64,000 bases of DNA from an uncultured delta proteobacterium (GTDB taxonomy: Bacteria; Desulfobacterota; RBG-13-43-22). This document shows, piece by piece, positions 2 through 49,206 of this stretch. The stretch lies in assembly GCA_963843145.1 (NCBI GenBank), contig CAWJJC010000022.1, positions 256,001 to 320,000 on the forward strand, in the 5' to 3' direction. The number at the start of each line of letters is the position of its first letter. Within the stretch, counting starts at the first letter, position 1. Position numbers and translations under genes: made by a program. Under the pieces are notes generated by a model. That model did not search any database and had not been told where the DNA came from. It saw nothing but the letters and a program-made list of their open reading frames with translations.

Positions 2-895
2 GCCCGGCTGAAACTGGCCCTGGACGAGCGGACCGCCGAATCCGATTTTACCGTTTCAGCCAATGACGGGGTGGTCACGGTCACCTATATGCCTCGGCAA
101 TCCCAGGGTTCTCCATTCATCACCGAAGTCCTGGCCGATCTCCCGGGGGTCAAAGAAGTCCTGGCCACTATGGCCGACAGCAATGTGCTCTGGATCCAGG
201 AGCGCTTCGATCCCCGTTCCGAAAATTATTCTCAGATCAATCAGGTGGCTCAACGTTGGGGCGCGGCCATAGAACTGCTCAGGTTTATACCCTCCGAGGA
301 GATCGGGATGGAGCCCGCAGAAGAGGCGCCGGCCGGCCACGCAACGGGATTTCAGAAAAAAGAATACACCGGGGGCATCGAAGACGACCTGCCCGAGTCG
401 CCCTCCGTCGATGACGGAGGGCTGGGGTTAACCCAAGAGGAACTGGTCCGCCAGGGACGGTCCGGGGGCAGCCGCAGCATCCAGGGGAATTTTCAGACCA
501 TAGCTTCGGCGGTCAGCCGGAATGTCAATTACAGTCTGGTGGTGATCGGCGATTTGTTCCTGTCCAAATCCAAGTCCGTCCAGACCCGCATGCTCCGGGA
601 CGTAAAGGTGTTCCTGGGGGATCGGGTCAGGGTGCCGGTGATTTCCGTCGACGAACTGCAGGAAAAATATCTCTTCGGCGGCCGGCAACTGATCAAATTC
701 CTGATCTTCATCGCCCTGGTGGCCGGGTGCTACCTGACCATTTTTACCAACCAGGTCCCGATCCTGGAATTTCTCCAAAAATACAAAGGAACGAAGGTCC
801 TCTCGGCGGTGGTCGTGGCCCTTTTCGTGCCGATCTTTGCCTACCTGTATGGCACGGTCGCCCACCTGTTCCTGAAAATGATCAAGTTCGATTAA
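2..895 (+). CDS. 5'-truncated membrane-anchored protein, probably cytidylate-kinase-like/BON family with two C-terminal TM helices
   Basis: Frame open from base 2 (ARLKLALDERTAESDFTVSANDGVVTV), resembling the BON-like segment of 9294-10130 (SRVKHALAVHDHTKGLELEVFAEKGVIKI); two hydrophobic helices at the C-terminus. Confidence 0.6.
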   Translation, partial: ARLKLALDERTAESDFTVSANDGVVTVTYMPRQSQGSPFITEVLADLPGVKEVLATMADSNVLWIQERFDPRSENYSQINQVAQRWGAAIELLRFIPSEEIGMEPAEEAPAGHATGFQKKEYTGGIEDDLPESPSVDDGGLGLTQEELVRQGRSGGSRSIQGNFQTIASAVSRNVNYSLVVIGDLFLSKSKSVQTRMLRDVKVFLGDRVRVPVISVDELQEKYLFGGRQLIKFLIFIALVAGCYLTIFTNQVPILEFLQKYKGTKVLSAVVVALFVPIFAYLYGTVAHLFLKMIKFD

Positions 896-925
896 ACTAT
901 CGCATGCGGATAAAGGAGTCTATCT

Positions 926-2014
926 ATGACTGGAGAATTAGCCAATTTATTTATCTCCTTGGACCTGGCCACGGCCCTGCAGGTGATCGTCCTGGGTTTT
1001 ATCGGCGGGGTCTTGAGCGGTTTTATCGGGAGCGGGGGGGCCTTCTTCATGACCCCGGGGATGATGAACCTGGGGGTCAACGGCGTCATCGCCGTGGCCA
1101 GCAACATTACCCACAAATTCGGCAAAGCCATGATGGGCTCCAAGAAACACGGGGAGATGGGCAATGTGGACAAGCGGCTGGCCCTCTTTCTGGTCTTGAC
1201 CTCCTTTGCCGGCATTCGGATCGCGGTCTGGATCAACAGTCTGCTTTTTCACGGGGGAGGGGACGGACACGGGGCCGCCAAAGGGGCCGGGGCCAATCTC
1301 TACATCAGCCTGGTTTTTGTCGGCATCCTGACGATGGTGGCTGTCTCCATGCTCCGGGATGTCCTGAAGAAAGGCGAGGATGGAGAAGGGCCCTCGAAAA
1401 AAATCGCTGAATTCCTTTCCGGCCTGAAGATTCCGCCTTTTATTTATTTTAAGGTGGCGGATGTCAAGGTCTCCTTGTGGCTGATCCTGCCGGTGGGGCT
1501 GGCTACGGGTTATCTGGCGGGAACCATCGGTGTCGGTGGATTTATCGGGGTCCCGGCCATGATCTATGTCTTCGGTATTCCCACGGCGGTGGCTGCCGGG
1601 ACCGAATTATATCTGGCCATGCTCATGGGGGCCTTCGGTGCCCTGAACTATGCCTGGGAAGGTTTCGTGGATATCCGTCTGGTGGTTTTGCTGTATGCCG
1701 GCTCCCTGTTGGGTGTCTATATGGGGGTTTACGGGGTCAAGGTAGTCAACGAACGGTACATCCGTCTGGTCACCGGATTGATCATCCTCCTCTGTGTCCT
1801 GAGTCGAGGGATTTCCATCCCGGTGTACCTCCGAGAGCTGGGGCACCTCAGCTATAATCCCGCCTACGATGTCTGGTTGAACGGGGCCAGCAAGTATCTG
1901 CTCTTTGCCAGTGGGATCAGCGGCGTCTTGGTTATCCTGGTCAATGTGTTCAAGGCCTTCAGCGCCCGGAAAAAGATACACCTGACGCTGGCCTATAGTA
2001 AGAAAACTACCTGA
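926..2014 (+). CDS. TSUP/TauE-SafE family sulfite/sulfur-compound exporter
   Basis: GFIGGVLSGFIGSGG and GYLAGTIGVGG Gly-rich repeats, many TM helices; RBS AAGGAG upstream. Confidence 0.9.
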   Translation: MTGELANLFISLDLATALQVIVLGFIGGVLSGFIGSGGAFFMTPGMMNLGVNGVIAVASNITHKFGKAMMGSKKHGEMGNVDKRLALFLVLTSFAGIRIAVWINSLLFHGGGDGHGAAKGAGANLYISLVFVGILTMVAVSMLRDVLKKGEDGEGPSKKIAEFLSGLKIPPFIYFKVADVKVSLWLILPVGLATGYLAGTIGVGGFIGVPAMIYVFGIPTAVAAGTELYLAMLMGAFGALNYAWEGFVDIRLVVLLYAGSLLGVYMGVYGVKVVNERYIRLVTGLIILLCVLSRGISIPVYLRELGHLSYNPAYDVWLNGASKYLLFASGISGVLVILVNVFKAFSARKKIHLTLAYSKKTT

Positions 2015-2063
2015 ACGGGTATTGGTGAACCCCAGCTCGAGGGAGCGGTAAGGAGGCAAACCG

Positions 2064-2471
2064 ATGGAGAATAAACTGCAAGTGCTTATACTGGACGATG
2101 AACCGATCGTCGGAAAACGGTTGGGACCGGCCCTGGCTAAAATGGGTGGGGAGGTGGAGGTTTTTGAAGACCCGCATCAGGCCCTGAAACGTATTGAGGA
2201 GAAAATCTTTGATATTGTGGTAACCGATATTCGGATGGAGGATATCGATGGCATCGAGATCCTGGAAAAGGTCAAGGCCAAATCCGACCGCACCAAGGTC
2301 ATTATGATCACCGGCTATGCCACCGTGGAGGTGGCCCGGGAGGCCATGGGCAAAGGGGCTTTTGATTTTATCGCCAAACCCTTTAAACCCAACGACCTGC
2401 GCGAAGTCATCGTCAAGGCTGCCAACGCCTTGGGATTTAAGGGGCTGACCCCCGTCATCCCCACTAAATAA
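2064..2471 (+). CDS. Stand-alone response regulator receiver
   Basis: LDDE, VTD, ITG, FIAKPF receiver motifs; RBS AAGGAGG. Confidence 0.92.
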   Translation: MENKLQVLILDDEPIVGKRLGPALAKMGGEVEVFEDPHQALKRIEEKIFDIVVTDIRMEDIDGIEILEKVKAKSDRTKVIMITGYATVEVAREAMGKGAFDFIAKPFKPNDLREVIVKAANALGFKGLTPVIPTK

Positions 2472-2510
2472 AAAAAGGGGCGGCGACATTTTTTAAGCGG
2501 GAACAGAACA

Positions 2511-4067
2511 ATGGTGCAGCGGGTCACTAAAGCCAATGATCCTTCAGACGATCTCCTGGAAAAAGAGGGGGCTCTTCTTGAAGGGACGTCCGTTTCCCCG
2601 ATGCCGGATGAACGCGGTTTCGCCGAAGCGCAGAAGGGCCTTACGGCCCGGCCCACCATGAGTATCCGGGCCAAGATCATTCTGGGATTTGTCCTGCTGT
2701 TTATCTTGAGTGCCGGGGCCAGCATCACCTTTCTGATCATGGGTTCCCGTATCAATCAGAAATTGAAGGTCATGGAAACCGTTAATTCCTATACCTTCGA
2801 GGTCCAACAGGCCCGCCGGTTTGAAAAGAATTTTTTTCTTTACCGGACCAATCTCCCGGACGCCCTGGAAAACATTCAGAATGCCCGTGAAGTCCTCAAG
2901 AAGGAAAAAGAAAATATTACCGAAGTGATCGGTCCGGAAAAATTAAATATGATGACGGCCCATCTGAACCGCTATGAAAGCCTGCTGACCAGCCTGAGGG
3001 CCGGCCAGGCCCCGTCGACCGAACCCCCGGCACCCTCGGCCAGTATCGAGGGAGAACTCCGGCAGCATGGGGCGGAAATGATTTTCCTGGCCGCCAATTT
3101 AGTCGAAAAAGAACGAAAAGACGTGGAGGCCATGACGCAATTATTTCGCCAGGTCCCGCTCTTTTTTTTGGCCATTCTGCTGATCGTCATGGCCTACCTG
3201 ACCCATTTTTTAGCCCAGCAGATCCTCCGTCCCCTAAACCGTTTTGTGGAATATACCTTGCGCATCGCCCGGGGTGATTTTACTCCCATCAAGCCGGCCA
3301 AAAAATACAAAGATGAATTCTCCCGACTGGCCATGGCCATCAACTGGATGATGGATCAATTAAAAAAAAACCAGGAGCAATATATTCAATCCCGTAAGAT
3401 GGCTTCCATCGGTACCCTGACCTCCGGTATTGCCCATGAACTGAATAATCCTCTCAATAATATCTGCATTACCACCGAATCCCTGATGGATGATCTGGAT
3501 ACCATTCCCGAGGCGGAAAAAAGAAAACGTCTTCAGGATATCTATACCCAGGCCGAGCGGGCCAGCGGGACGGTTCGCAATCTCCTGGACTTCACCCGGA
3601 TGGGGCAACCGACCTTCGTCCCGATTTCGGTTCGGGAACTCCTGAATTCCACCCTCAACCTGGCCCGGAACGAAATGGAGTTAAACGGCGTCCATCTGGA
3701 TTACGACCCTGAGTCGGCCGATGCCCGGTTGATGGGCGATTTCAGTCAATTGCAGCAAGTTTTCCTCAACCTGGTGATCAATGCCATCCAGGCCATGCCC
3801 CAGGGGGGCCGCCTGAGCATCGCGGTGAAAAACGAGGACCCCGACCTGGTCGGGATCACGGTAAAGGATACCGGCGTCGGTATCCCCCAGTCCATTATCA
3901 ATCAAATATTCGACCCTTTTTTTACCACCAAAGAAAAAGGGACCGGCCTGGGACTTTCGACCACCTACAGCATCGTCAAAAAACATGGGGGTAAGATCCA
4001 GATAGACAGCCAAATTAACCAGGGGTCCGCCTTCACCGTGCTTATTCCCAAATCCGAGGAGCGATAA
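2511..4067 (+). CDS. Membrane sensor histidine kinase (2 TM, HAMP, HisKA, HATPase)
   Basis: H-box GIAHELNNPL, N-box NLVINA, DTGVG, FFTTK-GTGLGL. Confidence 0.93.
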   Translation: MVQRVTKANDPSDDLLEKEGALLEGTSVSPMPDERGFAEAQKGLTARPTMSIRAKIILGFVLLFILSAGASITFLIMGSRINQKLKVMETVNSYTFEVQQARRFEKNFFLYRTNLPDALENIQNAREVLKKEKENITEVIGPEKLNMMTAHLNRYESLLTSLRAGQAPSTEPPAPSASIEGELRQHGAEMIFLAANLVEKERKDVEAMTQLFRQVPLFFLAILLIVMAYLTHFLAQQILRPLNRFVEYTLRIARGDFTPIKPAKKYKDEFSRLAMAINWMMDQLKKNQEQYIQSRKMASIGTLTSGIAHELNNPLNNICITTESLMDDLDTIPEAEKRKRLQDIYTQAERASGTVRNLLDFTRMGQPTFVPISVRELLNSTLNLARNEMELNGVHLDYDPESADARLMGDFSQLQQVFLNLVINAIQAMPQGGRLSIAVKNEDPDLVGITVKDTGVGIPQSIINQIFDPFFTTKEKGTGLGLSTTYSIVKKHGGKIQIDSQINQGSAFTVLIPKSEER

Positions 4068-4070
4068 GTC

Positions 4071-5009
4071 ATGTCTTTTTTTATCTATTTGCCGATTGCC
4101 GCCAGTAGTATCAATATCTTTCTCCTCTTGGGTCTGGGAGGCCTGGTGGGCTTTCTTTCCGGCCTTTTCGGGGTGGGAGGAGGCTTTCTGCTCACCCCGC
4201 TGCTGATTATGTTCGGCATCCCCCCCACCGTGGCCGCCGCCAGTGACTCCAACCAGATCGTGGCGGCCTCGGCTTCCGGGACCTATGCCCACTACCGTTT
4301 GGGAAATGTGGACTTCAAAATGGGGGTGGTTCTTTTGGTCGGGGGGGTGCTGGGCGGAAGTCTCGGGGTCTACCTGGTCCGCATGCTGCGGGCCATGGGA
4401 AATGCCGATTTCGTTATCAAGATCACCTACGTGGCCATGTTGGGGATCATCGGCGGGTATATGTTCGTCGAAAGCCTGCAAAGTCTCAAGAAGACGCCGG
4501 CCGCCGAAAAACCGTCGGAGGTTTCCCCCCGCAAACCTTCTCTATATGCCCGGTTGATTACCGCACTGCCTTTTAAGATGCATTTCACCAAATCCGGAAT
4601 CCAAATCTCCATGATCGTTCCCCTCTTGTTGGGAAGTCTGGTGGGGATCCTGGCGGCCATCATGGGTGTGGGAGGAGGCTTTGTCATGGTGCCGATCATG
4701 GTGTATCTGCTCCGGATGCCCATGCACGTCGTGGTGGGAACCAGTCTCTTTCAGATATTTTTTACCTGCATCAATGTGACCATCATGCAGGCCCATGTTA
4801 ACCATACCGTGGATTTCATCCTGGCCCTCATCCTGTTGATCGGCTCGTCCTGCGGGGCCCAGATCGGAGCCCGGATCAGCAAACGATTAAAGGGCGACCA
4901 GATCAAAATTCTTCTAGCCGTGATCATCATCGTGGTCATGGTCCAGATGCTCTTAGGCCTGATCCTTAGCCCCCATTTGCTATTAGCCTATAAAGGAGGC
5001 CACTCCTAA
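4071..5009 (+). CDS. TSUP/TauE-SafE family exporter
   Basis: GFLSGLFGVGGGFLLTP and AIMGVGGGF motifs. Confidence 0.92.
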   Translation: MSFFIYLPIAASSINIFLLLGLGGLVGFLSGLFGVGGGFLLTPLLIMFGIPPTVAAASDSNQIVAASASGTYAHYRLGNVDFKMGVVLLVGGVLGGSLGVYLVRMLRAMGNADFVIKITYVAMLGIIGGYMFVESLQSLKKTPAAEKPSEVSPRKPSLYARLITALPFKMHFTKSGIQISMIVPLLLGSLVGILAAIMGVGGGFVMVPIMVYLLRMPMHVVVGTSLFQIFFTCINVTIMQAHVNHTVDFILALILLIGSSCGAQIGARISKRLKGDQIKILLAVIIIVVMVQMLLGLILSPHLLLAYKGGHS

Positions 5010-5803
5010 TGAAGCGGTCCAAACAAACAACCTTGATTGGGGCCATCGTCCTTTTTGTCCTTAGTGGGGCTTTCTTTATTTCCGAGGCTGTTGGCCGGAC
5101 TTCCCCGCCGGGGATCGATGTGGTGCAACCCAAAACGATACGGATCGGGACCTTTTTTTCCGGAGGTCAGGTGACAGTGCGGGGGGTGGTCCCGGCGGGG
5201 GATCAAGTGGCCTTACGAATCCTGGGACCCCGTCATCCGCTGGTCCTGATGAAAAAGGGTCGCGTCGGGGGGCTGTGGATGAATGTGGGCCAGGTTACTT
5301 TCCAAGATATACCAAAAATCTACCTGCTCTGGACCTCGACCCCGGTGTCTTCCCTGGGGACGGAAGCCGAACGCCGATCCTGGAAAATGGATTATCCTTC
5401 GCTGCTGGCCGGAGCCTTGCCCCGAAACAATCCGGAGGAAGAAGGTCGGTTGCTTCAGGAATTGGTCAAATTAAAAGAGGCGGACCAGCTCTACCATATC
5501 TTTGAGGGTGCGGTTAAGATGAAGTCCCTGGAGCCCGAGGATTGGGAGCAGGTCGACGCGCTGTTAAGCCTGCCGGCAAAGATCGAGCCCGGTTCGTACT
5601 CCCTGGAGATGATAGCTTTCAAGGGGGGGCAAGGCCGGCTGATTCATTCCAGCACCCTGGAAGTCAGACTGGCGGGGTTGCCGGCCCTGGTTTCCGATTT
5701 GGCCGCCCGCCAGGGGTTATGGTACGGTATCCTGGCCGTGCTGATCGCCACCGTAAGTGGACTGCTCATCGGGATCGTTTTCAGTTCCAAAGGGGGCCAT
5801 TAA
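5009..5803 (+). CDS. TIGR02186-like membrane-anchored accessory protein of TSUP exporters
   Basis: N-terminal signal/TM, KKGRVGGLWMN motif, C-terminal TM; translationally coupled to the TSUP gene (TAATG). Confidence 0.8.
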   Translation: MKRSKQTTLIGAIVLFVLSGAFFISEAVGRTSPPGIDVVQPKTIRIGTFFSGGQVTVRGVVPAGDQVALRILGPRHPLVLMKKGRVGGLWMNVGQVTFQDIPKIYLLWTSTPVSSLGTEAERRSWKMDYPSLLAGALPRNNPEEEGRLLQELVKLKEADQLYHIFEGAVKMKSLEPEDWEQVDALLSLPAKIEPGSYSLEMIAFKGGQGRLIHSSTLEVRLAGLPALVSDLAARQGLWYGILAVLIATVSGLLIGIVFSSKGGH

Positions 5804-5838
5804 GAACCCGCAGCGCCTCCGAAACAGGTTCGAACGTC

Positions 5839-8397
5839 ATGTTGGATTCCATCAAATCTTTTTTCCGACGAAAAAAAAGCGAGGAAGGACTAAGCCTGCA
5901 GTTCCTGTTCCAAAGCTTCCGGGAACTGTTGGATTACAACAACCGAGCTCTGGACCTGATGGCCGATATGGGGGAAAAACTAGGCGGCGATTATCTGTTC
6001 GACAAACAGTATATTGAGACCGTGATCGCCGAGTTGGAGGAGGCGGTCTATAAAGTCGTCTACGATCTGAATTTAATCACTCCGAAGAAGTACCTGGAGC
6101 TGTTCACCGTTTTTGAAAAGGCTAAAATCGAAATTCAGGGCGAGTTGAGCTCCCGCTTCACCATCCCTAAGGGAGCCTACGTATATTCGCTAGGGGAACT
6201 GACCAAAGAAATGTCCGATTTTGCCGGAGAAAAAATGGCTACTCTGGGGGAACTCCGGAACCGTCTGGGATTGCGGATTCCGGAAGGTTTTGTGATTTCC
6301 ACCTATGCCTTCAAGCAGTTTATCGAAGCCAACGAGTTGGAATCCCTGGTGGCCCCCCTGGGGGAAGGGAAGTTACAGCCGGAGGTCATGGAGGAAAAGG
6401 CCCGGGAACTGCGGGAACGGATCCTGCGGGCCAAGGTCCCTTCGGAAATCAGGAAGGCCATCCGGAAAGTACTTTCTTCTCAGGAGGCCCTTCCGGTGAA
6501 GCACTGGGCGGTGCGCAGCAGCGCGGTTGGGGAAGACAGCCAAATCAGTTATGCCGGCCAGTATACCACGGTTTTAAATGTCCCCTCCGCGCAAATCGAG
6601 GCCGGCTACAAACAGGTAGTCGCCAGCCTGTTTGCTCCCCCGGTTATCCAGTATCGCCTACAGCGGGGGAGCCGGCAGCAGGAAATGGCCATGGCCGTCG
6701 GCTGTCTGTCCATGCTCTCCCCCCGGGTCAGCGGGGTCGTCTACACCGCCGATCCTAACGGCTTTGAAGGGAACGAAATGATCCTGGCGGCCGCCTGGGG
6801 GTTGGGTAAATTGGTGGTGGACGGGGAAAGAGCAGTGGATCAATACAAGGTTTCCAAAAATCCACCCTTTCCGGTTTTGTGGCAGCATATCGGGATTAAA
6901 AATGAACAATATGAATTGTCCGAAGCCGGGGGGATCGCCCTGGTCCCGGTCCCTCCGGAAAAGCAGGAGGTCCCCTGTCTGGATGAATCCCGGATGCGCG
7001 AAGTTCTGGCCGGGGCCATCCGGATTGAACAATACATGAAATCCTTCCAGGACATCGAATGGGCCATCGATTCCCAGGGCCAAGTCACCTACCTTCAGGC
7101 TCGGCCGCTCCAATTTACCGGCAAATTGAAATTGGATAAAAACCGGCTGATTACCGCCGCCCAGCAATATCCGATATTGCTAAAAGACCGGGGAGTGATC
7201 GCCAGCCGGGGTATCGGGGCCGGGACCGTTTTCCAAGTGCAATCCGAAGAGGACAGCCGACATTTTCCCCGCGGCGCAGTGCTGGTCTTGAAACATACTT
7301 CGCCCCGCCTATCCAAACTGGTTCCCGCCGCCAGTGCGGTGGTGACCGATATCGGGGCCGTCACCGGTCACATGGCCACCATCTGCCGGGAATTCCGGGT
7401 GCCCACCATCGTGGATACCGCCTTGGCTACGGAGGTCCTGAAATCCGGAATGGAAGTGACGGTGGATGCCGAAGAGAATGTGATCTATCAGGGGATCGTC
7501 AAAGAACTCCTGACCGCCCAGTTGATCGATCACATCCCCTATGAAGAAACCTATGAATTCAAATTGCTGCGGCGCTTGTTAAAAAAGGTTTCCATCCTGA
7601 ACGTGACCGATCCCCAATCCACTGATTTCGATTCGGCCCACTGTAAAACGTTTCACGACATCATCCGGTTTTCCCATGAAATGGCGGTCCGGAGGATCGC
7701 CCAGGGCATTCACCCCAGCCAGTTGGGTTTCATGCATTCGCTGACTAAAGTTAAGTTGCCCGTCCCGCTGGACCTGACCATCCTGGACATCGGGGGGGGG
7801 ATCCGAACGGGCCTTTCCTCCAACGAGATCTCCCTGGAAGAGATCGCCTGCGAGCCTTTGTCCATCCTGCTCCGGGCTTTGATCGCGCCGGGGGTCTGGC
7901 AGTCCCAACCGGTGGATTTGGACCTGAAGGGTTTCATTTCCAGCTTTACCAGCAACCTTTCCACCCAGGCGCTGGCCGCCGATAGCTCGAATGTGAATTT
8001 GGCCATTGTCTCCAAAGAATATATCAATCTAAATTTAGGTCTGGGGTACCATTTTAATATGGTGGACGGCTACCTTTCCAACGATCGCAACAGCAACTAC
8101 CTCTATTTTCGATTCTTCGGCGGCGTCACCGAATTCACCCGCCGGAGCCGACGGGTCAGGGTGTTGGCTCAGATTTTGGAAAAAAATGATTTTGCCGTGG
8201 AAAGCAAAGCGGACTTGATCATCGGCCGTATTAAAAAGATGGACCGCCCGAATATGGAGAACAAATTTCGTATGCTCGGACGATTAATCGGCTACACCCG
8301 GCAACTGGACGTCTTATTGCGGACGGATCAGGACATCGATTTTTTTACCAACCAGTTCTTTGAAGGGGAGGCGAATGCCCATCCCCTGACCGATTGA
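5839..8397 (+). CDS. PEP-synthase/PPDK-like protein (ATP-grasp plus phospho-His swivel domain, atypical C-terminus)
   Basis: AGEKMATLGEL, AVRSSA..ED....YAGQY, QDIEWAI, LQARP; His motif GAVTGHMATICRE; start at ATG 5839 avoids overlap with the upstream gene. Confidence 0.88.
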   Translation: MLDSIKSFFRRKKSEEGLSLQFLFQSFRELLDYNNRALDLMADMGEKLGGDYLFDKQYIETVIAELEEAVYKVVYDLNLITPKKYLELFTVFEKAKIEIQGELSSRFTIPKGAYVYSLGELTKEMSDFAGEKMATLGELRNRLGLRIPEGFVISTYAFKQFIEANELESLVAPLGEGKLQPEVMEEKARELRERILRAKVPSEIRKAIRKVLSSQEALPVKHWAVRSSAVGEDSQISYAGQYTTVLNVPSAQIEAGYKQVVASLFAPPVIQYRLQRGSRQQEMAMAVGCLSMLSPRVSGVVYTADPNGFEGNEMILAAAWGLGKLVVDGERAVDQYKVSKNPPFPVLWQHIGIKNEQYELSEAGGIALVPVPPEKQEVPCLDESRMREVLAGAIRIEQYMKSFQDIEWAIDSQGQVTYLQARPLQFTGKLKLDKNRLITAAQQYPILLKDRGVIASRGIGAGTVFQVQSEEDSRHFPRGAVLVLKHTSPRLSKLVPAASAVVTDIGAVTGHMATICREFRVPTIVDTALATEVLKSGMEVTVDAEENVIYQGIVKELLTAQLIDHIPYEETYEFKLLRRLLKKVSILNVTDPQSTDFDSAHCKTFHDIIRFSHEMAVRRIAQGIHPSQLGFMHSLTKVKLPVPLDLTILDIGGGIRTGLSSNEISLEEIACEPLSILLRALIAPGVWQSQPVDLDLKGFISSFTSNLSTQALAADSSNVNLAIVSKEYINLNLGLGYHFNMVDGYLSNDRNSNYLYFRFFGGVTEFTRRSRRVRVLAQILEKNDFAVESKADLIIGRIKKMDRPNMENKFRMLGRLIGYTRQLDVLLRTDQDIDFFTNQFFEGEANAHPLTD

Positions 8398-8446
8398 AGA
8401 GGGTTTTTCGATTGGGGAAAGGTCCCTAACGGGGAAGGAGGTTCCA

Positions 8447-8818
8447 ATGAAAAGTGATATTGCTGTCATGGTCCTGGACGATGAACCGATAGTCGGGGAG
8501 CGGCTCCGGCCGGTCCTGGAAAAGGAGGGCTTTCAGGTGGAAGTTTTTACCGACAGTCGGCAGGCGATCAACCGGCTGGAGGAGAAGCATTTTCAGGTCC
8601 TGGTAACCGATCTGAAAATGAGCGGGCCTACCGGCATCGATGTCCTGCGGTTTCTCAAAGACCGGAAACGGGACACCGAAGCCATCGTCATTACCGGATA
8701 CGCGACGATTGAAAGCGCCCGGGAAGCCGAATATCTGAACGCACAATTCGTCACCAAACCTTTCAAGCTGGAGCACATCGTTAAACTGGTGGAGAAAGCG
8801 GCTAAAAAATTCAAGTAA
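8447..8818 (+). CDS. Stand-alone response regulator receiver
   Basis: LDDE, VTDLKM, ITGY, TKPF; RBS AGGAGG. Confidence 0.92.
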   Translation: MKSDIAVMVLDDEPIVGERLRPVLEKEGFQVEVFTDSRQAINRLEEKHFQVLVTDLKMSGPTGIDVLRFLKDRKRDTEAIVITGYATIESAREAEYLNAQFVTKPFKLEHIVKLVEKAAKKFK

Positions 8819-8846
8819 TTCCTGCCGGCTTTGGAGCGGAGGTCCC

Positions 8847-9215
8847 ATGGAACCCATTCCCAGCGTAATGATCCTGGATGACGAACCGATCGTCTGCGAA
8901 CGACTGCGTTCCACCCTGGAGAAGGTGAATCTCGATCTCGAAACCTTTACCGACCCCCGGGAAGCGATTAAGCGATTTTCCGAAAAAAAATTTCAGGTCT
9001 TGATTACCGATCTCAAAATGAAAGAATTAGACGGTATCGAAATCTTGAAACGGGTCAAACAGGTTTCCCCGGAAACCCAGGTGATTATCATTACGGGTTT
9101 CGCTACAGTCGAAAAGGCAAAAGAAGCCCTAAAAATCGGGGCCTATGACTTTATCGCCAAACCTTTTAAACTTTCTCAGTTACGGGATTTGGTGGTCAAG
9201 GCTCTCGAGCGGTGA
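8847..9215 (+). CDS. Stand-alone response regulator receiver
   Basis: LDDE, ITDLKM, ITGF, FIAKPF. Confidence 0.92.
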   Translation: MEPIPSVMILDDEPIVCERLRSTLEKVNLDLETFTDPREAIKRFSEKKFQVLITDLKMKELDGIEILKRVKQVSPETQVIIITGFATVEKAKEALKIGAYDFIAKPFKLSQLRDLVVKALER

Positions 9216-9293
9216 GGCGCGGTCCCCATCTCAAGAAACGGCCTTCAGGGTTCAGAAGTTCGCCAAGTACCTATTCGTACCAAAGGAGGAAAA

Positions 9294-10130
9294 ATGGCCA
9301 TCATTACCATTTCCAGGGGCACCATGAGCGGCGGGGAATCCCTGGCGAAATGTCTTTCCGAGAAACTGGGATTTCCAGCCGTCAGCCAGGAAATTATCGA
9401 GGAGGCCTCCAGACGGTCCGGGATCTCCCCATCCCTTCTTCAGCAGCAACTGGAAAAAACCAAAGGATTGGTCCACGGCTCTTCCCCCGAGCGGCGTTGT
9501 TATCTTACCGCTATTCAATTGGCCCTGGCCGAAAGGATGCAAGAAGGTTCGTTCATCTATTATGGACATGCAGGACATCTATTGTTAAAAAAACTGCCCC
9601 AGGTCCTGAAAGTCCGAGTGATCGCCCCTCTGCAGTCGAGAGCCCAGAAACTGGCCGAGACGCAAAATATTACCCTGGAAGAAGCCCAAAAAAACATCGA
9701 GAAAATGGACGAGGGCCGGATTAAGTGGACTCGTTTTTTGTACGAGGTAGACTGGCGGGACCCGGCACTCTATGATTTGGTCATTAATCTGGATGCCATA
9801 ACGATAGAGGGCGCCTGCGGTATTATCGAGTGTGCTTTAAACCAAACGGAGTTTGCCGAGTCTCCGGATTCTTCGGCGAGCATTGAGGATTTTGTCCTGG
9901 CCAGCCGGGTGAAGCACGCTCTGGCGGTCCATGACCATACCAAGGGGTTGGAATTGGAAGTATTTGCCGAAAAGGGGGTTATTAAGATCAGCGGGAGCTT
10001 TGAGACCGGCGGGATTTTTCCCAGTGGGAAAAAACGAATCAAAAACGACCTGACCGTTGTGGCGCAACAGGTCCCGGGCGTTAAAAAAGTCCAGATCGGC
10101 CTTGAAGATATTCCGGTAGCCTTGGAATAA
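9294..10130 (+). CDS. Cytidylate-kinase-like protein with C-terminal BON-like domain
   Basis: IITISRGTMSGG P-loop-like start, YDLVIN motif; BON-like C-terminal segment. Confidence 0.85.
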   Translation: MAIITISRGTMSGGESLAKCLSEKLGFPAVSQEIIEEASRRSGISPSLLQQQLEKTKGLVHGSSPERRCYLTAIQLALAERMQEGSFIYYGHAGHLLLKKLPQVLKVRVIAPLQSRAQKLAETQNITLEEAQKNIEKMDEGRIKWTRFLYEVDWRDPALYDLVINLDAITIEGACGIIECALNQTEFAESPDSSASIEDFVLASRVKHALAVHDHTKGLELEVFAEKGVIKISGSFETGGIFPSGKKRIKNDLTVVAQQVPGVKKVQIGLEDIPVALE

Positions 10131-10155: not shown

Positions 10156-11112
10156 ATGGACATTGAACCCGGAATTGAGGGGAAAAGGCCGGTCTTCTTA
10201 AAACAGATCCTGGCGATTTTAGGAGAAGAGAAGGAGGTCCTGGACGGTCTCCTGCAGTTTGCCGATGAAGAGAAGGGGGTCCTGGACGGTCTTCTGCAGT
10301 TGGCCGAAGAGGGCAATAAACTCGAAGAAGAAAGGACCACTCTAGCCCGAAAGCGCAACGTCCTCACTACCCATTTGGTGGAAGACTCGGGGGCCCGAAC
10401 CGAATTGGCCCGAGAGCGCACCGAATTGAACAAACAATTGGTCAGGAATTCCGATCTGCGGACCCAGTCGGCCGAAAAACGCACGGACATGGCCGATACC
10501 CGCACCGGCCTGATGCGGGAACAGACCCGGCTATCATTCAAGAGCACCGAACTCGCCCAAGAACGGACCGGCTTGGCCAACCGGCGCACGGATATGGCTA
10601 CCAGGAGGACCGACCTGGCGGATAAACGAACTGGTCTGGCGGAGCGACGGACCAGTCTGGCGGATAGACGGACCGATCTGGCAGAGCAACGGACCAGCCT
10701 GGCGGACAGGAGGACCGGTCTGGCGGATAAACGAACTGGTCTAGCAGAGCAACGGACCGGTCTGGCGGTTCAGCGCACCCAACTGTCCAACCGCAGAACC
10801 GAACTGGCGAGCGGAAGAAATACGCTGGCCGACCTCCGGACCCACCTGTCCTCCCATCGGACCATCCTGGCAAAAGAAAGAACGCTTCTGGCCTTTATGC
10901 GCACCGGCATAGCCCTGATCGCCCTGGGGTTGGCCTTAATACGCTATTTTGGAATGGGGATCTGGACCGTGATGGATGGGTTTCTGATTCTGACCGGCCT
11001 GGTCACGATGAGCATTTCGGTTCGGGCCTATCTGTCCGCCTACCGAAAAGAACAACACGTGATCCTGGTTATCGACCAAAAGATGCGCGCTGTCGTCGAC
11101 TGGGTCGGTTAA
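10156..11112 (+). CDS. DUF202 (YidH-like) membrane protein with long heptad-repeat coiled coil
   Basis: C-terminal RTILAKERTLLAFMRTG plus two TM helices; repeated LAxxRT(G/D/S) units. Confidence 0.8.
   Translation: MDIEPGIEGKRPVFLKQILAILGEEKEVLDGLLQFADEEKGVLDGLLQLAEEGNKLEEERTTLARKRNVLTTHLVEDSGARTELARERTELNKQLVRNSDLRTQSAEKRTDMADTRTGLMREQTRLSFKSTELAQERTGLANRRTDMATRRTDLADKRTGLAERRTSLADRRTDLAEQRTSLADRRTGLADKRTGLAEQRTGLAVQRTQLSNRRTELASGRNTLADLRTHLSSHRTILAKERTLLAFMRTGIALIALGLALIRYFGMGIWTVMDGFLILTGLVTMSISVRAYLSAYRKEQHVILVIDQKMRAVVDWVG
10225..10308 (+). repeat. 42-bp tandem duplication (EEKxVLDGLLQxA twice)
   Basis: gaagagaagg..gtcctggacggtct..ctgcagtt at 10225 and 10267. Confidence 0.85.
10552..10842 (+). 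repeat. Degenerate 21-bp tandem repeat encoding a 7-aa unit LA(D/E)(K/R/Q)RT(G/D/S)
   Basis: Translation LAQERTG LANRRTD MATRRTD LADKRTG LAERRTS LADRRTD LAEQRTS... Confidence 0.85.
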
Positions 11113-11250: not shown

Positions 11251-11290
11251 AAAAAAAATGGGGCCCCCCGATTTTTCGGAGGGCCCCATC
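11251..11290 (-). terminator. Rho-independent terminator between convergent operons
   Basis: A-tract followed by the atggggccc...gggccccat hairpin just after the stop at 11304. Confidence 0.7.
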
Positions 11291-11303
11291 CGGAGGTTGT
11301 TTT

Positions 11304-13727
11304 TTAAAGAATATATTGAGCGACACCCTCCTTGTGCACCCGGCTGACCACCCCTTCTTTGACCATCTCCTGCAGTCCGACTATAATATCTTCTTTATTG
11401 GCTTTCAGGCTTTGGCTGAGCTCTTTCAGTTCAAAAAAGCGCTTATCCGAGCTGAGTAGATTGGCGATTCGGGACTTCACCCATTCTTCCTTCAGGATTC
11501 CCAGGAAGTCCTTGTCAAAGGCCATGGCATTGCGCTGGTTTCCAGGATAGACTTCCTCCCAGGGACGCCGCAGGGTGGCCCCCAGGACCCAGCGGACCCG
11601 GGGGTTGTTCACCGTAGCGTATATCCCCTGGATCTTTTCCTGAACATGAGGGCTTCGGTCGATAGGACCCAGCTCGTTGATTAATTTGATGAAGCTCTCC
11701 ACCACCACGATGTAATCCTCCGGTTTGTTCAGGTCCACGTGGGCCAGAGCGATGCGCCGACGGTCCTGTCCGGCGAACTCCAGCAGTTTTTTAAGGACGT
11801 TGACCCGGCTCCAGGTATGATCCAGTCCGAATGAGTGGTGGCAGTCATCCGGAGGGCAGCCGATCAAGATTAGGCCGTTGGCCCCTTCCACAAAAGCCCG
11901 GGCCAGCACCGAGGGGTCCAACTGACCGATGCAGCCCACCCGCAGTAGATAGACCCGGGGGTCGTAGGCCAGGCCTTTAAGGCCGGCATTATCGGCTGCG
12001 GCCAGACCTCCCCACATACAGCCGTAGGCCAGGACTTCGCCCTCAGACAGGGACCGGGCCAGGGCGGCCACCTGGGCCTCTCGCTGTTGGTTGGTGTTGT
12101 TTTGGAGGACCAAAGCATGGTGCGGGCAGGCGGCGGCGCAGGTCCCGCCGCCGGTACAGACCATGGGGTCCACCGCCCGGGGAATGCCGCCCCCCAGGCC
12201 TTCTACGGGCTCAATCCCGCCGCAATGGCAGATTTCCTTGCACAGTCCGCAGCCCGTGCACAGGGCCTGGTCAACCGAGCAAACCATCCGGGGGGCGTAG
12301 AGCTCGTTTTTTCGAGCCTTCTCCACCAGCTCCGACGTCTTGACCGCGGCCCGGCGGCCTTGGCGCAGGGCCTCATGGAGATCGCAGGGATAGCGGGCGC
12401 TGCCGGCCAGATACATCTCATCCCGCCCCACCTGTTCGGGTCGGACCTTTTCACCTTTCACTTCCAGAAACTTCCCCTTCTCGCACGCCAAACCCAGGAT
12501 ACCGGCGATCCGGGTGGCCTCCAGACCCACCGAACGCCGTGGGGAAAGGATTAATTTGTCCCAGGAAATTTCGTATTCCGTGTGGTCCTGGGGATCGCAA
12601 TAGGTCAGGTAACCGGCCTGCACCGTAGGACGGATGGCTCCGTCGTAAGGGATCCACTTGATCTTGTGCTGCCGGGCCAACCGTCGTTCTTCGGCGGAAA
12701 GGGGGAGCTGCATGAAGTGGTTGTAGATGAAACTGATCTCGAGGTCTTTTCGCTGGCTGATCATATACTGGGCAATGGACCAGGCGGTTCGGGACGACAG
12801 GTAGGCGTATTCCGGCGTTTTGGACTCGTAGTCGTTCAGCCAGAAGACGATTTTTCCGCTCGGGACCCCGTGGGTCCAGATCAACTCCTCGATTTCCGTG
12901 TGGCAGATCACCGATTTGCCGTCATGGCCGAAGTCGGACCCCTGGTTCAACATCTGGCCGTCCAGACAGGCGATAATGGCCCCTACTTCGAAGACCTTGG
13001 AGGGTTCCCCCTCTTGGGTCGAGAAGGTAACGGTGTAATGCCCGGTCCGACCCTTGACGCTTTTCAGCTCCCCGATGGTAATCCGCCGAACCAATGGGCT
13101 TTCATCCACCTCCTGCATGATTTTTTCCAGACGGTCGTAGTAATGCCGTTCCCCCGGATATTGTTCATGAAGCATGCGGATTTCATCTTCGTACTCATCG
13201 CTCTGGACCGCCAGGATGCAGTCGATGTTTTTCCGCAGCAGTTCCTGGGCGGCCGCGTAGGTGGCGATTCCTCCTCCGAGGATCATGACCGGGCCGACAA
13301 ACTCCACCTTTTCCGAGACCGTCGGCTCCAACACCGCCTGACCGGCCACCGCCGCCCCGATCAGTTTGGCTCCCTTGGCGGCCATTTCCTGGGGTGACAG
13401 CCGGTGCACAGCGGCCACATGGTCTTTTAGGTTGACCATGTCGATCTGACCTTCTTGGATATCCGTTCCGACGAAGGCTTGGTTGAATTTTTTTAAAAGG
13501 ATGCGGGGTTCGCAGCCGGCGATCACCAGTCGGTTCAACCCATGACGTTCGACGGATGCCTTGATTTGGTTCAATCCAGGAGTCGTGCAGGACATGGGCA
13601 GGATTTCAACCTGACTGATCAGGGGATTGTTCTGGAGCGCTTCCTGTAATTCCTTGAGGTCGACCCAGGGGTCGATCCGCCCGTCGCACTGGCAGAGAAA
13701 GACGCCTATTTTTTTATTGTCGTCCAT
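11304..13727 (-). CDS. HdrA-like/MvhD fusion (QmoB-like) Fe-S flavoprotein with C-terminal wHTH-like tail
   Basis: KIGVFLCQC start, ILGGG FAD motif, two ferredoxin motifs (CTGCGLC, CTGGGTCAAACP), MvhD motifs (YGCMW, RVGCIG, GCPPDDCH); RBS GGAGG before ATG 13727. Confidence 0.85.
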   Translation of the reverse strand: MDDNKKIGVFLCQCDGRIDPWVDLKELQEALQNNPLISQVEILPMSCTTPGLNQIKASVERHGLNRLVIAGCEPRILLKKFNQAFVGTDIQEGQIDMVNLKDHVAAVHRLSPQEMAAKGAKLIGAAVAGQAVLEPTVSEKVEFVGPVMILGGGIATYAAAQELLRKNIDCILAVQSDEYEDEIRMLHEQYPGERHYYDRLEKIMQEVDESPLVRRITIGELKSVKGRTGHYTVTFSTQEGEPSKVFEVGAIIACLDGQMLNQGSDFGHDGKSVICHTEIEELIWTHGVPSGKIVFWLNDYESKTPEYAYLSSRTAWSIAQYMISQRKDLEISFIYNHFMQLPLSAEERRLARQHKIKWIPYDGAIRPTVQAGYLTYCDPQDHTEYEISWDKLILSPRRSVGLEATRIAGILGLACEKGKFLEVKGEKVRPEQVGRDEMYLAGSARYPCDLHEALRQGRRAAVKTSELVEKARKNELYAPRMVCSVDQALCTGCGLCKEICHCGGIEPVEGLGGGIPRAVDPMVCTGGGTCAAACPHHALVLQNNTNQQREAQVAALARSLSEGEVLAYGCMWGGLAAADNAGLKGLAYDPRVYLLRVGCIGQLDPSVLARAFVEGANGLILIGCPPDDCHHSFGLDHTWSRVNVLKKLLEFAGQDRRRIALAHVDLNKPEDYIVVVESFIKLINELGPIDRSPHVQEKIQGIYATVNNPRVRWVLGATLRRPWEEVYPGNQRNAMAFDKDFLGILKEEWVKSRIANLLSSDKRFFELKELSQSLKANKEDIIVGLQEMVKEGVVSRVHKEGVAQYIL

Positions 13728-13747
13728 AATGGGTACCTCCTTATACC

Positions 13748-14386
13748 TTATACCTTTGGGGAAGAATGGGGGCTCTGGTGACCGCTGCCGCGGACACTGT
13801 CCAGACGGGCCCGCATCGCCCCGGTCGGGCAGACCGTCACGCAGGAACCGCAGGCCACGCACACCTCTGAGGGTTTTTCAAAAGGCGACCCAACTTTTTT
13901 GTGAACGCCCCGGCCGATGGTCGTGAGGGCGGAAACGCCCACCACCTCCCGGCAAACCCGGACACATAAACCACAGAGCAGGCATTGCTCTTCGGGATTA
14001 TCAATGCGGAAACGGGTTCCGGTTACCCCATACTCCGCCGCTAGGGCGCGAATTTCCTTGCTGGCCGGGCATTCGGCCAAAAGCATCTCCAGAATCCAAC
14101 GCCGCACATTTTTTACCCGGTCGCTGTCCGTTTGCACGGAAATGCCCTCTTGCGCCGGGAACATACAGGAAATCACCACCTTGGACCAGTTGCCTTTTTG
14201 GACCTCCACTACGCACAGGCGGCAGGCCCCGCTGGGCGAAACGGCTTCGTGATAGCAGAGGGTAGGTATGTGAATGCCGTACTGGCGGGCGGTCTCCAGG
14301 ACCGTCCAGCCTTCCTGGGCCTCTACCGGCTGGTCATTGATCGTAAAAGAAACGGATCTTGTTTTCGAATGGTTCTGGTTACTCAT
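13748..14386 (-). CDS. NuoG/HydA N-terminal-like Fe-S subunit (2Fe-2S plus 2x4Fe-4S; BamI/HoxU-like)
   Basis: IPTLC..GACRLC..SC; CLLCGLCVRVC; CVACGSCVTVCP. Confidence 0.88.
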   Translation of the reverse strand: MSNQNHSKTRSVSFTINDQPVEAQEGWTVLETARQYGIHIPTLCYHEAVSPSGACRLCVVEVQKGNWSKVVISCMFPAQEGISVQTDSDRVKNVRRWILEMLLAECPASKEIRALAAEYGVTGTRFRIDNPEEQCLLCGLCVRVCREVVGVSALTTIGRGVHKKVGSPFEKPSEVCVACGSCVTVCPTGAMRARLDSVRGSGHQSPHSSPKV

Positions 14387-14398
14387 GGGGTCACCTCT

Positions 14399-16309
14399 TT
14401 ATTCAATCTTTACCGCGTCAAACTTGCAGGAATCCAGGCACATGCCGCAGCGGATACAGGACGCTTCGTCGATCCGGTGGGGTTTTTTCTTCTCGCCGGA
14501 GATACAATTCTGGGGACAACTGCGGGCGCATAATCCGCAGCCGGTACAGGCCTCCGGGTCAATCCGGTAGGTTATCAAGGCCCTGCAAACGCCGGCCGGA
14601 CATTTGTGGTCCACGATGTGCGCCGCATACTCGTCGCGAAAATGCCGCAGCGTGGTCAGGACCGGATTGGGCGCCGTTCCTCCCAGCGCGCAAAGAGAAC
14701 CATCCTGAATGGCCTTGGCCAGGCTGTTCAGATCGTCTATATCCTCCATGGCCCCTTCTCCGCGTGAGAATCGATCGAGGAACTGGTACATCGATTTAAG
14801 CCCCAGCCGGCAGGGCAGGCATTTGCCGCAGGACTCGTCCATCAAAAAGGACAAGAAATAACGGGCTACGTCCACCACGCAGTCGCTGTCGTCCATAACG
14901 ATCATGCCGCCCGAACCCATCATGGAACCGGCCTTGGACAATGAATCAAAATCAACGGGTGTATCCCGAAGCGCATAGGGCAGACAGCCCCCCGAAGGCC
15001 CCCCGGTCTGTACGGCCTTGAAGTGGCCCCGTCCCGGAACACCTCCCCCGATGTTTTCCACCAGGTCATTGAGGGACATGCCCATGGGGATCTCCACCAG
15101 TCCGATGTTATTGATTTTGCCAACCAGCGAAAAAACTTTGGTGCCGGTGCTGGTGGGCACCCCGTAACCGGTGTACCAGTCGGGGCCTTTGCCGATGATC
15201 AAAGGGACATTACAGAAGGTTTCAATGTTGTTGATAATCGTCGGCTGGCCCCAAAGACCGGCTTCCGCCGGGAAAATATATTTGGGAGTGGCTTCGCCGG
15301 CCACCCCTTCAATGGAATGGATCAGGGCGGTTTCCTCCCCGCAGACGAAGGCACCGGCGCCTCGGACGATCAGCACCTCGAAATCAAACCCGCTGCCGAG
15401 GATGTCCTTCCCCAATAAACCCAGCTTTCGGGCCTGCTCCATGGCGATGGCCAGGTGTTTTCTGGCCAGGGGGTATTCCTCCCGCACGTACATATATCCC
15501 TGATGTGCCCCGATGGCGTAGGCGCCGAGAATGAGTCCCTCCAATACCGCGTGGGGATCCCCTTCCATCAGCGTTCGGTCCATGAAGGCCCCCGGATCCC
15601 CTTCGTCGCCGTTGGCGACGATGTAGACCGACCCGCCCTTTCTTTGAGCGGCACTGATGGCGGATTTCCATTTTATACCGGTGGGAAACCCGGCGCCCCC
15701 TCTTCCTCTCAGGCCGGATTTGACGATGGCCTCCACTACCTCACCGGGTTTCATGGTAGCCAGCGCCTTGGCCAGGGCCTCGTAGCCCCCGGCCGTAATC
15801 GTGTCGCGGATATCCGTGGGATCGATCTTGCCGATATTGTGCATGACGATCCGCGTTTGATTCTTGTAAAAAGGGATCTCTTCATGGTGGACAATGTGCT
15901 CGCCGGTCTTGGGGTCTTGATACAGGAGCCGATCCACCGGCTTTCCCTCCAGGAGGGTGGTTTGGACGATTTCCGGGCAGTCGGTTGGTTGCACCCGTTG
16001 GTAGAAAATGTCCGAGGGTTGTAAAATCACCAGGGGACCTCGTGAGCAAAAACCGTGACACCCGGTGGTTTTGATATCGGGAATAACCGAGATGTCCAAT
16101 CCGGCCTGGCTGATGGCCGTTCGAAGCGCACCGGCCACTTCCACGCTGCCGTTGGCCAGGCATCCCGTTCCATGGCAGACAATGATGTAGGGTTTTTGAG
16201 GATCCCTCGCCGTCAGGAGGGTTTCACGGTAGGTTTTTAACATATCCGGAGAAGTCAAACGGAGTTCCGTCGGTATCGGTTTGGGTTGTGCTTTACTTGC
16301 TTGAGCCAT
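14399..16309 (-). CDS. NuoF/HydB-like NADH-binding FMN Fe-S subunit
   Basis: GRGGAGFPTG, NGDEGDPGAFMDR, GAGAFVCGEET, ESCGKCLPCR; N-terminal thioredoxin-like 2Fe-2S and C-terminal 2x4Fe-4S. Confidence 0.93.
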   Translation of the reverse strand: MAQASKAQPKPIPTELRLTSPDMLKTYRETLLTARDPQKPYIIVCHGTGCLANGSVEVAGALRTAISQAGLDISVIPDIKTTGCHGFCSRGPLVILQPSDIFYQRVQPTDCPEIVQTTLLEGKPVDRLLYQDPKTGEHIVHHEEIPFYKNQTRIVMHNIGKIDPTDIRDTITAGGYEALAKALATMKPGEVVEAIVKSGLRGRGGAGFPTGIKWKSAISAAQRKGGSVYIVANGDEGDPGAFMDRTLMEGDPHAVLEGLILGAYAIGAHQGYMYVREEYPLARKHLAIAMEQARKLGLLGKDILGSGFDFEVLIVRGAGAFVCGEETALIHSIEGVAGEATPKYIFPAEAGLWGQPTIINNIETFCNVPLIIGKGPDWYTGYGVPTSTGTKVFSLVGKINNIGLVEIPMGMSLNDLVENIGGGVPGRGHFKAVQTGGPSGGCLPYALRDTPVDFDSLSKAGSMMGSGGMIVMDDSDCVVDVARYFLSFLMDESCGKCLPCRLGLKSMYQFLDRFSRGEGAMEDIDDLNSLAKAIQDGSLCALGGTAPNPVLTTLRHFRDEYAAHIVDHKCPAGVCRALITYRIDPEACTGCGLCARSCPQNCISGEKKKPHRIDEASCIRCGMCLDSCKFDAVKIE

Positions 16310-20734: not shown

Positions 20735-20884
20735 AGGCCCGGTGATTAAATAGTTGACTAAAACCGGTAGGTTATGAAATATTTCCCTTGTAGCATTGAC
20801 AATAATCATTCAAAATACTATTATATTTAAGATAAAAGATTTTATTTTGCACGATTAAAAGTGGTAGTAGGGATAGGCTTGGGG

Positions 20885-26715: not shown

Positions 26716-26739
26716 GGAACCGCTTGTTGATAACAAGGC

Positions 26740-27663: not shown

Positions 27664-27689
27664 TTCGCTCCGAAAGGCAGTTTCTAAGT

Positions 27690-27965
27690 CTATGAGAAAT
27701 CTCCCTTCTTCAAAAAGAGTTCCTTGACGATGGCTGATTTTTCCCGCCCGGTGGTCTCGATGCCCTCCAGGCGGGCCGTCTCCATCAGGATGTCATCAGG
27801 GTAGGCCAGGGTCAAGGAGGCGCTAGATTCCTCGGATTCGAAGAAGCATTCAAAATCAGCCCTCCGGTTGACCTCATTGATCCCTTCCTGATAAGCCGTG
27901 ATAGTTTCCCCCAGCAACTGCCTCAGATATCGGGGAAGGAAAAGCCTTTTACTTTGATCGATCAT
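27690..27965 (-). CDS. Small hypothetical protein
   Basis: RBS AAGGAGG, operon context. Confidence 0.7.
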   Translation of the reverse strand: MIDQSKRLFLPRYLRQLLGETITAYQEGINEVNRRADFECFFESEESSASLTLAYPDDILMETARLEGIETTGREKSAIVKELFLKKGDFS

Positions 27966-27981
27966 AGGAACTGGACCTCCT

Positions 27982-29202: not shown

Positions 29203-29239
29203 AGACTTTCCCCTCCTTTCGCGATTGTCCGGCTGGGGT

Positions 29240-49177: not shown

Positions 49178-49206
49178 ATTTTTCCACTCTCCTTCGTTCG
49201 GGCGCC

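Follow-up and report, generated by a model that had tools for sequence, protein, structure and literature searches.

What is a protein annotated as a phosphoenolpyruvate (PEP) synthase doing among membrane transporters and single-domain receivers? The question is raised by a gene unit at the left end of a 64,000-nt stretch of contig CAWJJC010000022.1 from an uncultured delta proteobacterium (the window), in which two TSUP/TauE transporters (TauE1 and TauE2), a TIGR02186-like membrane protein, a histidine kinase, three receivers (REC1, REC2, and REC3), and a protein resembling pyruvate phosphate dikinase (PPDK), here designated PPL, are encoded together (Table 1). An earlier note, which covered positions 2-10130, proposed that this unit is a post-translational circuit controlling the transport of sulfur compounds. 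The open reading frame (ORF) list and the sequence confirm ten genes in that interval, all on the plus strand and spaced by -1 to 78 bp, with the families claimed for them in Pfam and NCBIfam; however, the note overlooked a DUF202 gene (10156-11112), with which the unit extends to position 11112 and comprises eleven plus-strand genes. From the results presented here, PPL is a predicted phosphotransferase of a kind not yet characterised, which combines the dikinase chassis with a new acceptor domain and is linked to a TSUP transporter and a receiver. We read the unit as a putative TSUP (TauE plus TIGR02186-like protein) anion transporter operon that may carry its own post-translational control module.

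Over its N-terminal two thirds, PPL has PEP synthases as its best sequence and structure matches, and it shares with these enzymes (TIGR01418/PRK06464) and with PPDK an ATP-grasp domain followed by a swivel domain, the catalytic Lys, Arg, and His, and a Thr two residues before the swivel His. All of 100 aligned homologues have K132, R226, E232, G240, Q420, R422, and H511, and 68 of 73 anchor proteins retain Thr509, the regulatory position of PEP synthase and PPDK. Because the ATP-grasp and swivel residues are invariant, the mechanism established for dikinases predicts that PPL autophosphorylates at His511. The description of PPL as PEP-synthase-like stands for this region, with its ATP-grasp domain and swivel His intact, but not for the remainder, where the PEP-synthase C-terminal domain is absent. 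Matches to PEP synthases and to rifampin phosphotransferase (RPH), in sequence and in structure, stop near residues 553-568 (the best VIA match, 5hv1, Z 37, spans residues 111-553); Pfam found no match to PEP-utilizers_C (PF02896, the PEP/pyruvate TIM barrel) in PPL; and TIGR01418 scored 277.7 bits against a cut-off of 739.75, over residues 115-618 only. Unlike PEP synthase and PPDK, PPL has no TIM barrel, an extra three-helix N-domain, and an unrelated C-domain of ~290 aa, modelled (pLDDT 85) as an alpha/beta structure of short hairpin-type strands and helices, not as eight beta-alpha repeats. With the C-domain as query, Foldseek returned nothing at E<=0.001, a PDB sequence search gave a best E of 0.11, and an Atlas search recovered its own family only. 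The two best VIA matches (Z 5.9, rmsd 4.3, 104 aligned; Z 6.4, rmsd 4.2, 105 aligned) were both to T4 MotA and within background, and the VIA rows listed held neither a TIM barrel nor the RPH substrate domain, which is no proof of a new fold. The C-domain family comprises at least 1,083 clusters at 50% identity. Among 552 unique copies, D607 (545/545), R772 (552/552), and D824 (548/548) are invariant, and H738 (551/552), H613 (543/546), H606, and an F-x-G-G loop are near-invariant. Alignment and model together show that PPL keeps the residues for transfer from ATP to His511, without the pyruvate barrel, and with a putative new acceptor unit made of its N- and C-domains.

Source databases often name this family pyruvate, water dikinase. 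That PPL is an ordinary PEP synthase, as the label says, is favored by these names, by the matches of its N-terminal two thirds, and by the retention of Thr509, but the missing PF02896 domain, the TIGR01418 score, and a C-domain model that is not a barrel largely refute it. Moreover, the D. vulgaris gene ppsA (DVU1833) is reported as essential, whereas DVU0152, DVU0246, DVU3214, and DVU3237 (744-887 aa) are reported as not essential (PMC10102598). We regard this reading as extremely improbable. A family of this size that carries the label cannot run the named reaction as known, and metabolic reconstructions and proteomics of sulfur-cycling anaerobes may misread it.

A scan of GTDB with the C-domain alignment retrieved 499 loci, and gene neighbourhoods were counted in the closest 80, which are nearest relatives and not independent lineages; the counts use loci with enough flank. 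A TIGR02186-like gene lies directly 5' of PPL in 73 of 74 loci, TauE2 lies upstream in 67 of 68, and a receiver adjoins PPL or is fused to it in 75 of 78, the exceptions being L014, where PPL stands alone, and L037 and L067, where no receiver was detected. The full core of TauE2, TIGR02186-like gene, PPL, and receiver is present in 51 of 54 well-flanked loci, and the record titles of core-bearing loci name Thermodesulfobacteriota, Gemmatimonadota, Acidobacteriota, Myxococcota, Planctomycetota, and Elusimicrobiota. The arrangement recurs far more than chance would give, and the co-occurrence of families anticipated for this unit is confirmed. The core is TauE2, its accessory protein, PPL, and a receiver; the remaining genes are accessory (a kinase of any kind in 49 of the 54 well-flanked loci, CMP-kinase-like genes in 25, TauE1 in 10, and DUF202 in 10), and a second PPL paralogue occurs in 12. 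A search of plasmid sequences gave no match. In three relatives, PPL, TauE2, or the accessory gene is split into two ORFs (L001:8313-10879, L002:6571-7505, and L007:7493-8284), each a frameshift or an assembly error. Seven loci (L025, L026, L036, L040, L046, L054, and L075) have CCG/Fe-S, NarI-like, NrfD, and Rex genes as neighbours, which suggests a tie to membrane redox complexes in Gemmatimonadota and Planctomycetota.

The tie between PPL and the receivers, surmised in the earlier note, is upheld by this adjacency and by repeated gene fusion. Of 576 C-domain sequences, 13 have a receiver fused at the C-terminus; each of these receivers belongs to the REC2 type, and the tree shows seven changes. 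In a quick receiver tree the clade of 27 rows that holds REC2 (SH-aLRT 97) includes the PPL-fused receivers of L026, L036, and L040. REC1, REC2, and REC3 are 48-55% identical, and each has the DD pair, D55, T, and K; among the receivers aligned with REC2, all 65 have D11, D12, D55, T83, and K104. All three are, by these residues, predicted to be phosphorylatable. A complex prediction of PPL (18-848) with REC2 scored 0.18 against a mark of 0.32 and was used neither for nor against binding. Two further PPL homologues (P0360 and P0370) carry C-terminal extensions of ~200 aa that are not receivers, one of them weakly lectin-like.

PPL paralogues differ in what they retain. Among four-domain representatives the swivel His is kept in 94 of 94, and the full ATP-grasp catalytic set in 70; the other 24 depart from it, mostly heavily. 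Such pseudo-enzyme forms would be more typical of signalling than of metabolism and, like the receiver fusions, set the family apart from PEP synthase and PPDK. At four loci, a copy whose ATP-grasp domain is dead stands beside an intact one; in L052 the copy with an intact ATP-grasp domain has lost H511 and H738, both of which its neighbour keeps, so that the two are complementary. In L004, L005, L008, and L009 a minimal protein, consisting of an N-domain and an eroded C-domain, immediately precedes REC1 and, in the three loci that show TauE1, follows it. All four minimal proteins keep the H613 position and have lost H606-D607, H738, and the Arg cluster; HHalign relates them to PPL at 94.5%, and an Atlas search with the minimal protein gave no usable match. 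Other short forms (P0321 and P0355) keep H738 and have lost the H613 motif. In L004, L005, and L009 the order is TauE1, minimal His613-bundle protein, REC1, and second PPL paralogue, a second, divergent set with its own receiver and PPL paralogue; the minimal protein and the second paralogue are both absent from this window. A further architecture, N-domain, swivel, and eroded C-domain, is found beside an intact paralogue at L065:12609-14048.

In the model of full-length PPL, the three N-domain helices and helix 605-622 form one four-helix bundle, whose invariant His-Glu we take to recall HPt and DHp modules. The PPL bundle differs from these in being a composite of N-domain and C-domain helices, and no sequence match or listed structural match links them. 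Mean-field direct coupling analysis (DCA; 383 sequences) gave couplings that match the bundle (Y85-F611, Y85-M615, E67-F605, G45-N740, G49-M741, and G45-T487) and places a conserved N-domain Gly loop close to the H738 hairpin and to T487 of the swivel. The bundle and the minimal and dead paralogues are hints, from alignments and models, of a relay architecture.

The receivers might instead belong to a transcriptional pathway. The statement that none of the genes has a DNA-binding output is true only as far as the window reaches: immediately upstream of the same gene order, L001, L002, and L007 carry a co-oriented sigma-54 activator (its ORF cut by the locus edge) and a USP-like gene, followed by gene 1. 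Judged from these relatives, the lack of such an output is mostly a window-edge effect. Upstream activators are present in 25 of 60 loci. Where an activator is adjacent, 20 of 26 loci have a -24/-12 motif no more than 400 bp from the first gene (background 1.3), as against 4 of 41 where none is (background 0.5). In L001 and L002 the motif lies 39 bp before the USP-like gene, and L007 has no match; the second promoter pattern was drawn up after the L001 site had been seen, so L001 is no independent test. From the motif and activator seen in relatives, outside the window, the unit is probably under sigma-54 control, and a sigma-54/NtrC system would most likely activate the operon. In their sensor regions the operon kinase and the activator-paired kinases are homologous, and their H-boxes are almost identical. 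On a co-regulation account, the receivers are phosphate sinks or feedback elements for the kinase and a sigma-54 NtrC activator, and PPL and TauE act independently of them; the upstream activators, the enrichment of the motif, and the specificity residues shared by kinases and receivers agree with it. However, a receiver accompanies PPL almost everywhere, whereas an activator lies in the fetched flanks of only 24 of 54 well-flanked loci; PPL-REC2 fusion is repeated, and the divergent TauE1 module has a receiver and a PPL paralogue of its own. We think it unlikely that co-regulation is the whole story.

Published clusters of similar content bear on transport. The Desulfovibrio cluster DVU0251-0245/Dde_0597-0605 contains genes for TauE (DVU0251), a kinase annotated as a pseudogene, a receiver (DVU0247), a PPDK-like protein annotated with ATP-grasp and mobile domains only (DVU0246), and a phosphatase (DVU0245); it differs from the present unit in having its own PtxB-like periplasmic protein, in its dual-specificity phosphatase, and in that the receiver precedes the PPDK-like gene (PMC4001038). 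Mutants of D. vulgaris in DVU0246, DVU0247, DVU0250, and DVU0251 resist nitrate, unlike the phosphatase mutant, and a leaky thiosulfate transporter is the authors' proposal, based on data they had not published (PMC4001038). Because DVU0246 is downstream of TauE and upstream of the phosphatase gene, its phenotype is hard to ascribe to polarity. The earlier remark that no functional description exists was too strong in view of these phenotypes, although it holds for the mechanism as far as this paper's account of the cluster goes, and the genetics fits post-translational control of a TauE, as had been proposed. In Dissulfuribacter (D. thermophilus), consecutive genes for TauE, a transmembrane partner, and a 'PEP synthase' (within DITHS69_1988-1990) are co-induced on thiosulfate disproportionation (log2 1.56, 1.79, and 3.40, respectively; PMC13490349); neighbouring DITHS69 tags were sought in the supplement, and none was found. 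In D. vulgaris, DVU0150-0146 is a predicted sigma-54 transport operon induced in syntrophy, and in DVU0145-0152 a 135-aa receiver adjoins an 853-aa 'PEP synthase-related' gene (PMC4641369, PMC4265775). Where the papers on these last two clusters treat the PPDK-like gene, it is given no role or filed under carbon metabolism. The function of TSUP/TauE proteins is described as not predictable (PMC5840216); because of family membership and the papers on similar clusters, the cargo here would most likely be a sulfur oxyanion, e.g., thiosulfate or sulfite. No account of the PPL family or of PPL-receiver phosphotransfer was found in the literature searched, with most subscription journals outside its scope.

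These data can also be explained by an enzyme acting on the transported solute. PPL would then be a small-molecule dikinase or ligase, like RPH, PpsAB, or HpeHI, that traps or detoxifies what TauE2 moves by phosphorylating or activating it, with the phosphorylated receiver as an allosteric switch only. Small-molecule phosphorylation has precedent in the superfamily (PMC12167813); D607, R772, D824, H738, and the F-x-G-G loop resemble an enzyme site; and the co-induction with TauE (PMC13490349) and the common mutant phenotype (PMC4001038) would be accounted for as well. RPH, PpsAB, HpeHI/CreHI, and PigC/RedH share with PPL the ATP-grasp/swivel chassis with another acceptor domain, and also split or complementary forms; the split, complementary PPL copies recall two-component dikinases. 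However, RPH, PpsAB, and HpeHI have the order ATP-grasp, substrate domain, and C-terminal swivel, whereas the PPL swivel (445-557) precedes the C-domain, and the context of these enzymes and PigC/RedH is catabolism or resistance, whereas that of PPL is a transporter and receivers. Among relatives' neighbourhoods no catabolic gene recurs downstream of the core; the genes that do recur encode receivers, kinases, USPs, and degenerate P-loop proteins. The minimal proteins that keep only H613 are left unexplained by such an enzyme. We consider a solute-directed dikinase, the strongest of the alternatives, possible, though on the doubtful side.

We put at about even the chance that a receiver-coupled, ATP-driven phosphotransferase controls the transporter post-translationally. 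In the PTS, the swivel His of Enzyme I serves as a protein phosphodonor; PPL differs from Enzyme I, as from HPt and DHp modules, in that its own phosphodonor would be ATP, via the ATP-grasp domain. In the mechanism we propose, the membrane kinase would phosphorylate the receivers, and REC2 would act on, or together with, PPL; His511 might pass its phosphoryl group to a protein acceptor at the site between N- and C-domains, possibly a second His such as H613 or H738, and from there onward to the Asp of a receiver or to the transporter complex, and transporter activity would be set as a result. In a more specific version, PPL is an ATP-grasp-powered, non-GHKL histidine kinase that relays from ATP through His511 and His613 (an HPt-like bundle) to a receiver Asp, or the other way round, while its Arg-rich C-domain senses an oxyanion inside the cell and the dead-ATP-grasp and minimal His613 paralogues relay in trans; we hold this version to be rather unlikely as a whole.

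Several observations count against post-translational control by phosphotransfer. The His/Asp/Arg cluster of the C-domain suits a small-molecule site equally well, and the characterised ATP-grasp/swivel-His enzymes named in PMC12167813 all phosphorylate small molecules. In the Desulfovibrio cluster, mutations of upstream genes by insertion may have polar effects, and fitness was positive (+2.08) for the phosphatase mutant of G20 (PMC4001038); DVU0246 (744 aa) and DITHS69_1988 are likened to PPL by gene order, length, and annotation only. All fusions lie within one 70-leaf clade and many retain the receiver's own Met, and they therefore resemble stop-codon losses between neighbours; no fusion occurred in the 120 matches listed for a Desulfurivibrionaceae query. 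The operon kinase and NtrC-paired kinases share H-box residues, and NtrC receivers are like REC1-3 in helix 1, so the receivers may serve the transcriptional pathway. As to the bundle, the DCA was shallow (Neff 252 over 472 columns) and does not give a test independent of the model, the four-helix structural matches (Z 9-12) are generic, and an HPt protein was absent among the 50 rows listed for the full PPL model.

The uptake and export of sulfur oxyanions by dissimilatory sulfur bacteria pose one question (PMC5840216), and the mechanism of the Desulfovibrio nitrate-resistance cluster poses another. H511, H613, H738, and D55 make both questions testable in a genetically tractable host. The C-domain would be a new acceptor domain for the dikinase chassis. 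If a phosphoryl group does reach a receiver, two-component signalling would gain a new kind of input, and an ATP-grasp His-His-Asp relay would be a new input class gating TSUP transporters, hidden by the dikinase label.

The other proteins of the unit vary more among relatives. TauE1 and TauE2 are ~25% identical, and PF01925 spans the full length of both (120.5 and 178.4 bits, respectively; cut-off 32.6). The TIGR02186 match of the accessory protein, at 69.8 bits, is under the 255 cut-off, and the true start of the kinase may be internal, at 2600 or 2658. Of the two cytidylate-kinase-like/BON proteins reported for the unit, the one at 9294-10130 stands, and gene 1 is 5'-truncated, the part inside the window matching no Pfam family; a cytidylate-kinase-like domain is visible only in its orthologues, e.g., L001:1796 (504 aa, PF13189). 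Gene 1 consists of a degenerate Cytidylate_kin2 domain (outside the window), a BON-like segment, and an unassigned alpha/beta domain, and ends in two hydrophobic, probably transmembrane segments. A USP-like fold for its C-terminal part was not supported (HHalign 2%). The Walker A consensus of (d)CMP kinases is GxxGxGK[ST]; in the 9294-10130 protein the Lys position is Gly, and TIGR02173 scored 47.9 bits against a cut-off of 102.1, which led us to reject active (d)CMP kinases. Nor is a role for these proteins as core active kinases supported, given their presence in only 25 of 54 loci and the missing Walker-A Lys. Their matches are PF13189 and two structures of uncharacterised proteins, and L041:15410 is a version with a fused receiver; from these features they are probably nucleotide- or ligand-binding accessories. 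CMP-kinase-like genes and USP-type genes downstream seldom occur together: of 80 loci, 27 have the former only, 27 the latter only, 2 both, and 24 neither, a pattern that follows lineage. The DUF202 gene, which begins 25 bp after the 9294-10130 gene, contains a 21-bp (7-aa) unit in 7.7 copies at 10607-10768 and a 42-bp duplication at 10225-10307; its product ranges from 248 to 368 aa among relatives.

Table 1. Features of the gene unit and domains of PPL, in window positions or PPL residues.
Feature	Position	Strand	Basis or remark
Gene 1, C-terminal ~297 aa of ~502-aa accessory protein	2..895	+	70-80% identical to L001/L002 ORFs
TauE1, TSUP/TauE transporter 1, accessory	926..2014	+	PF01925
REC1, single-domain receiver	2064..2471	+	Pfam
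Membrane sensor histidine kinase, HAMP-HisKA-HATPase_c	2511..4067	+	Pfam
TauE2, TSUP/TauE transporter 2, core	4071..5009	+	PF01925
TIGR02186-like/Alph_Pro_TM membrane accessory protein, core	5009..5803	+	PF09608
PPL (PPDK-like), 852 aa, core	5839..8397	+	PPDK_N and PEP-utilizers
REC2, single-domain receiver, orthologue of PPL-fused receivers	8447..8818	+	Pfam, receiver tree
REC3, single-domain receiver	8847..9215	+	Pfam
Cytidylate_kin2 and BON-like protein, degenerate P-loop	9294..10130	+	Pfam; BON match weak
DUF202 membrane protein, coiled repeat region, last gene of unit	10156..11112	+	Pfam
Terminator-like hairpin between unit and convergent Fe-S oxidoreductase genes	11256..11296		longest stem listed
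PPL three-helix N-domain	residues ~20-104
PPL ATP-grasp	residues ~110-430		PF01326, E 3.8e-69
PPL swivel domain with His511	residues ~445-557		PF00391
PPL C-domain, unclassified	residues 560-848		carries H606, D607, H613, E614, H738, R769, R772, D824

The hairpin after the unit is one of a set of terminator-like sites whose overall number is no higher than in shuffled sequence. Convergent on the unit, at 11304-16309 (minus strand), lie NuoF/HydB-like, 2Fe-2S/4Fe-4S, and HdrA-like-MvhD genes for a probable electron-bifurcating complex. Elsewhere in the window there are several PAS histidine kinases and three PAS-sigma-54 activators, at 17036-18781 (minus), 20861-22246 (plus), and 54225-55676 (plus). 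A third TauE gene is found near radical-SAM lipoyl-synthase-like and lipoate-ligase genes at 56396-60587 (minus). A receiver-DUF4376 fusion at 24835-25650 (plus) is followed by four ORFs of 300-430 aa (25810-30334) with no Pfam match. At 47589-53662 (minus), two MTHFR-family genes, a DUF5981 gene, and a gene for a 1013-aa flavoprotein suggest a methyl-branch Wood-Ljungdahl cluster.

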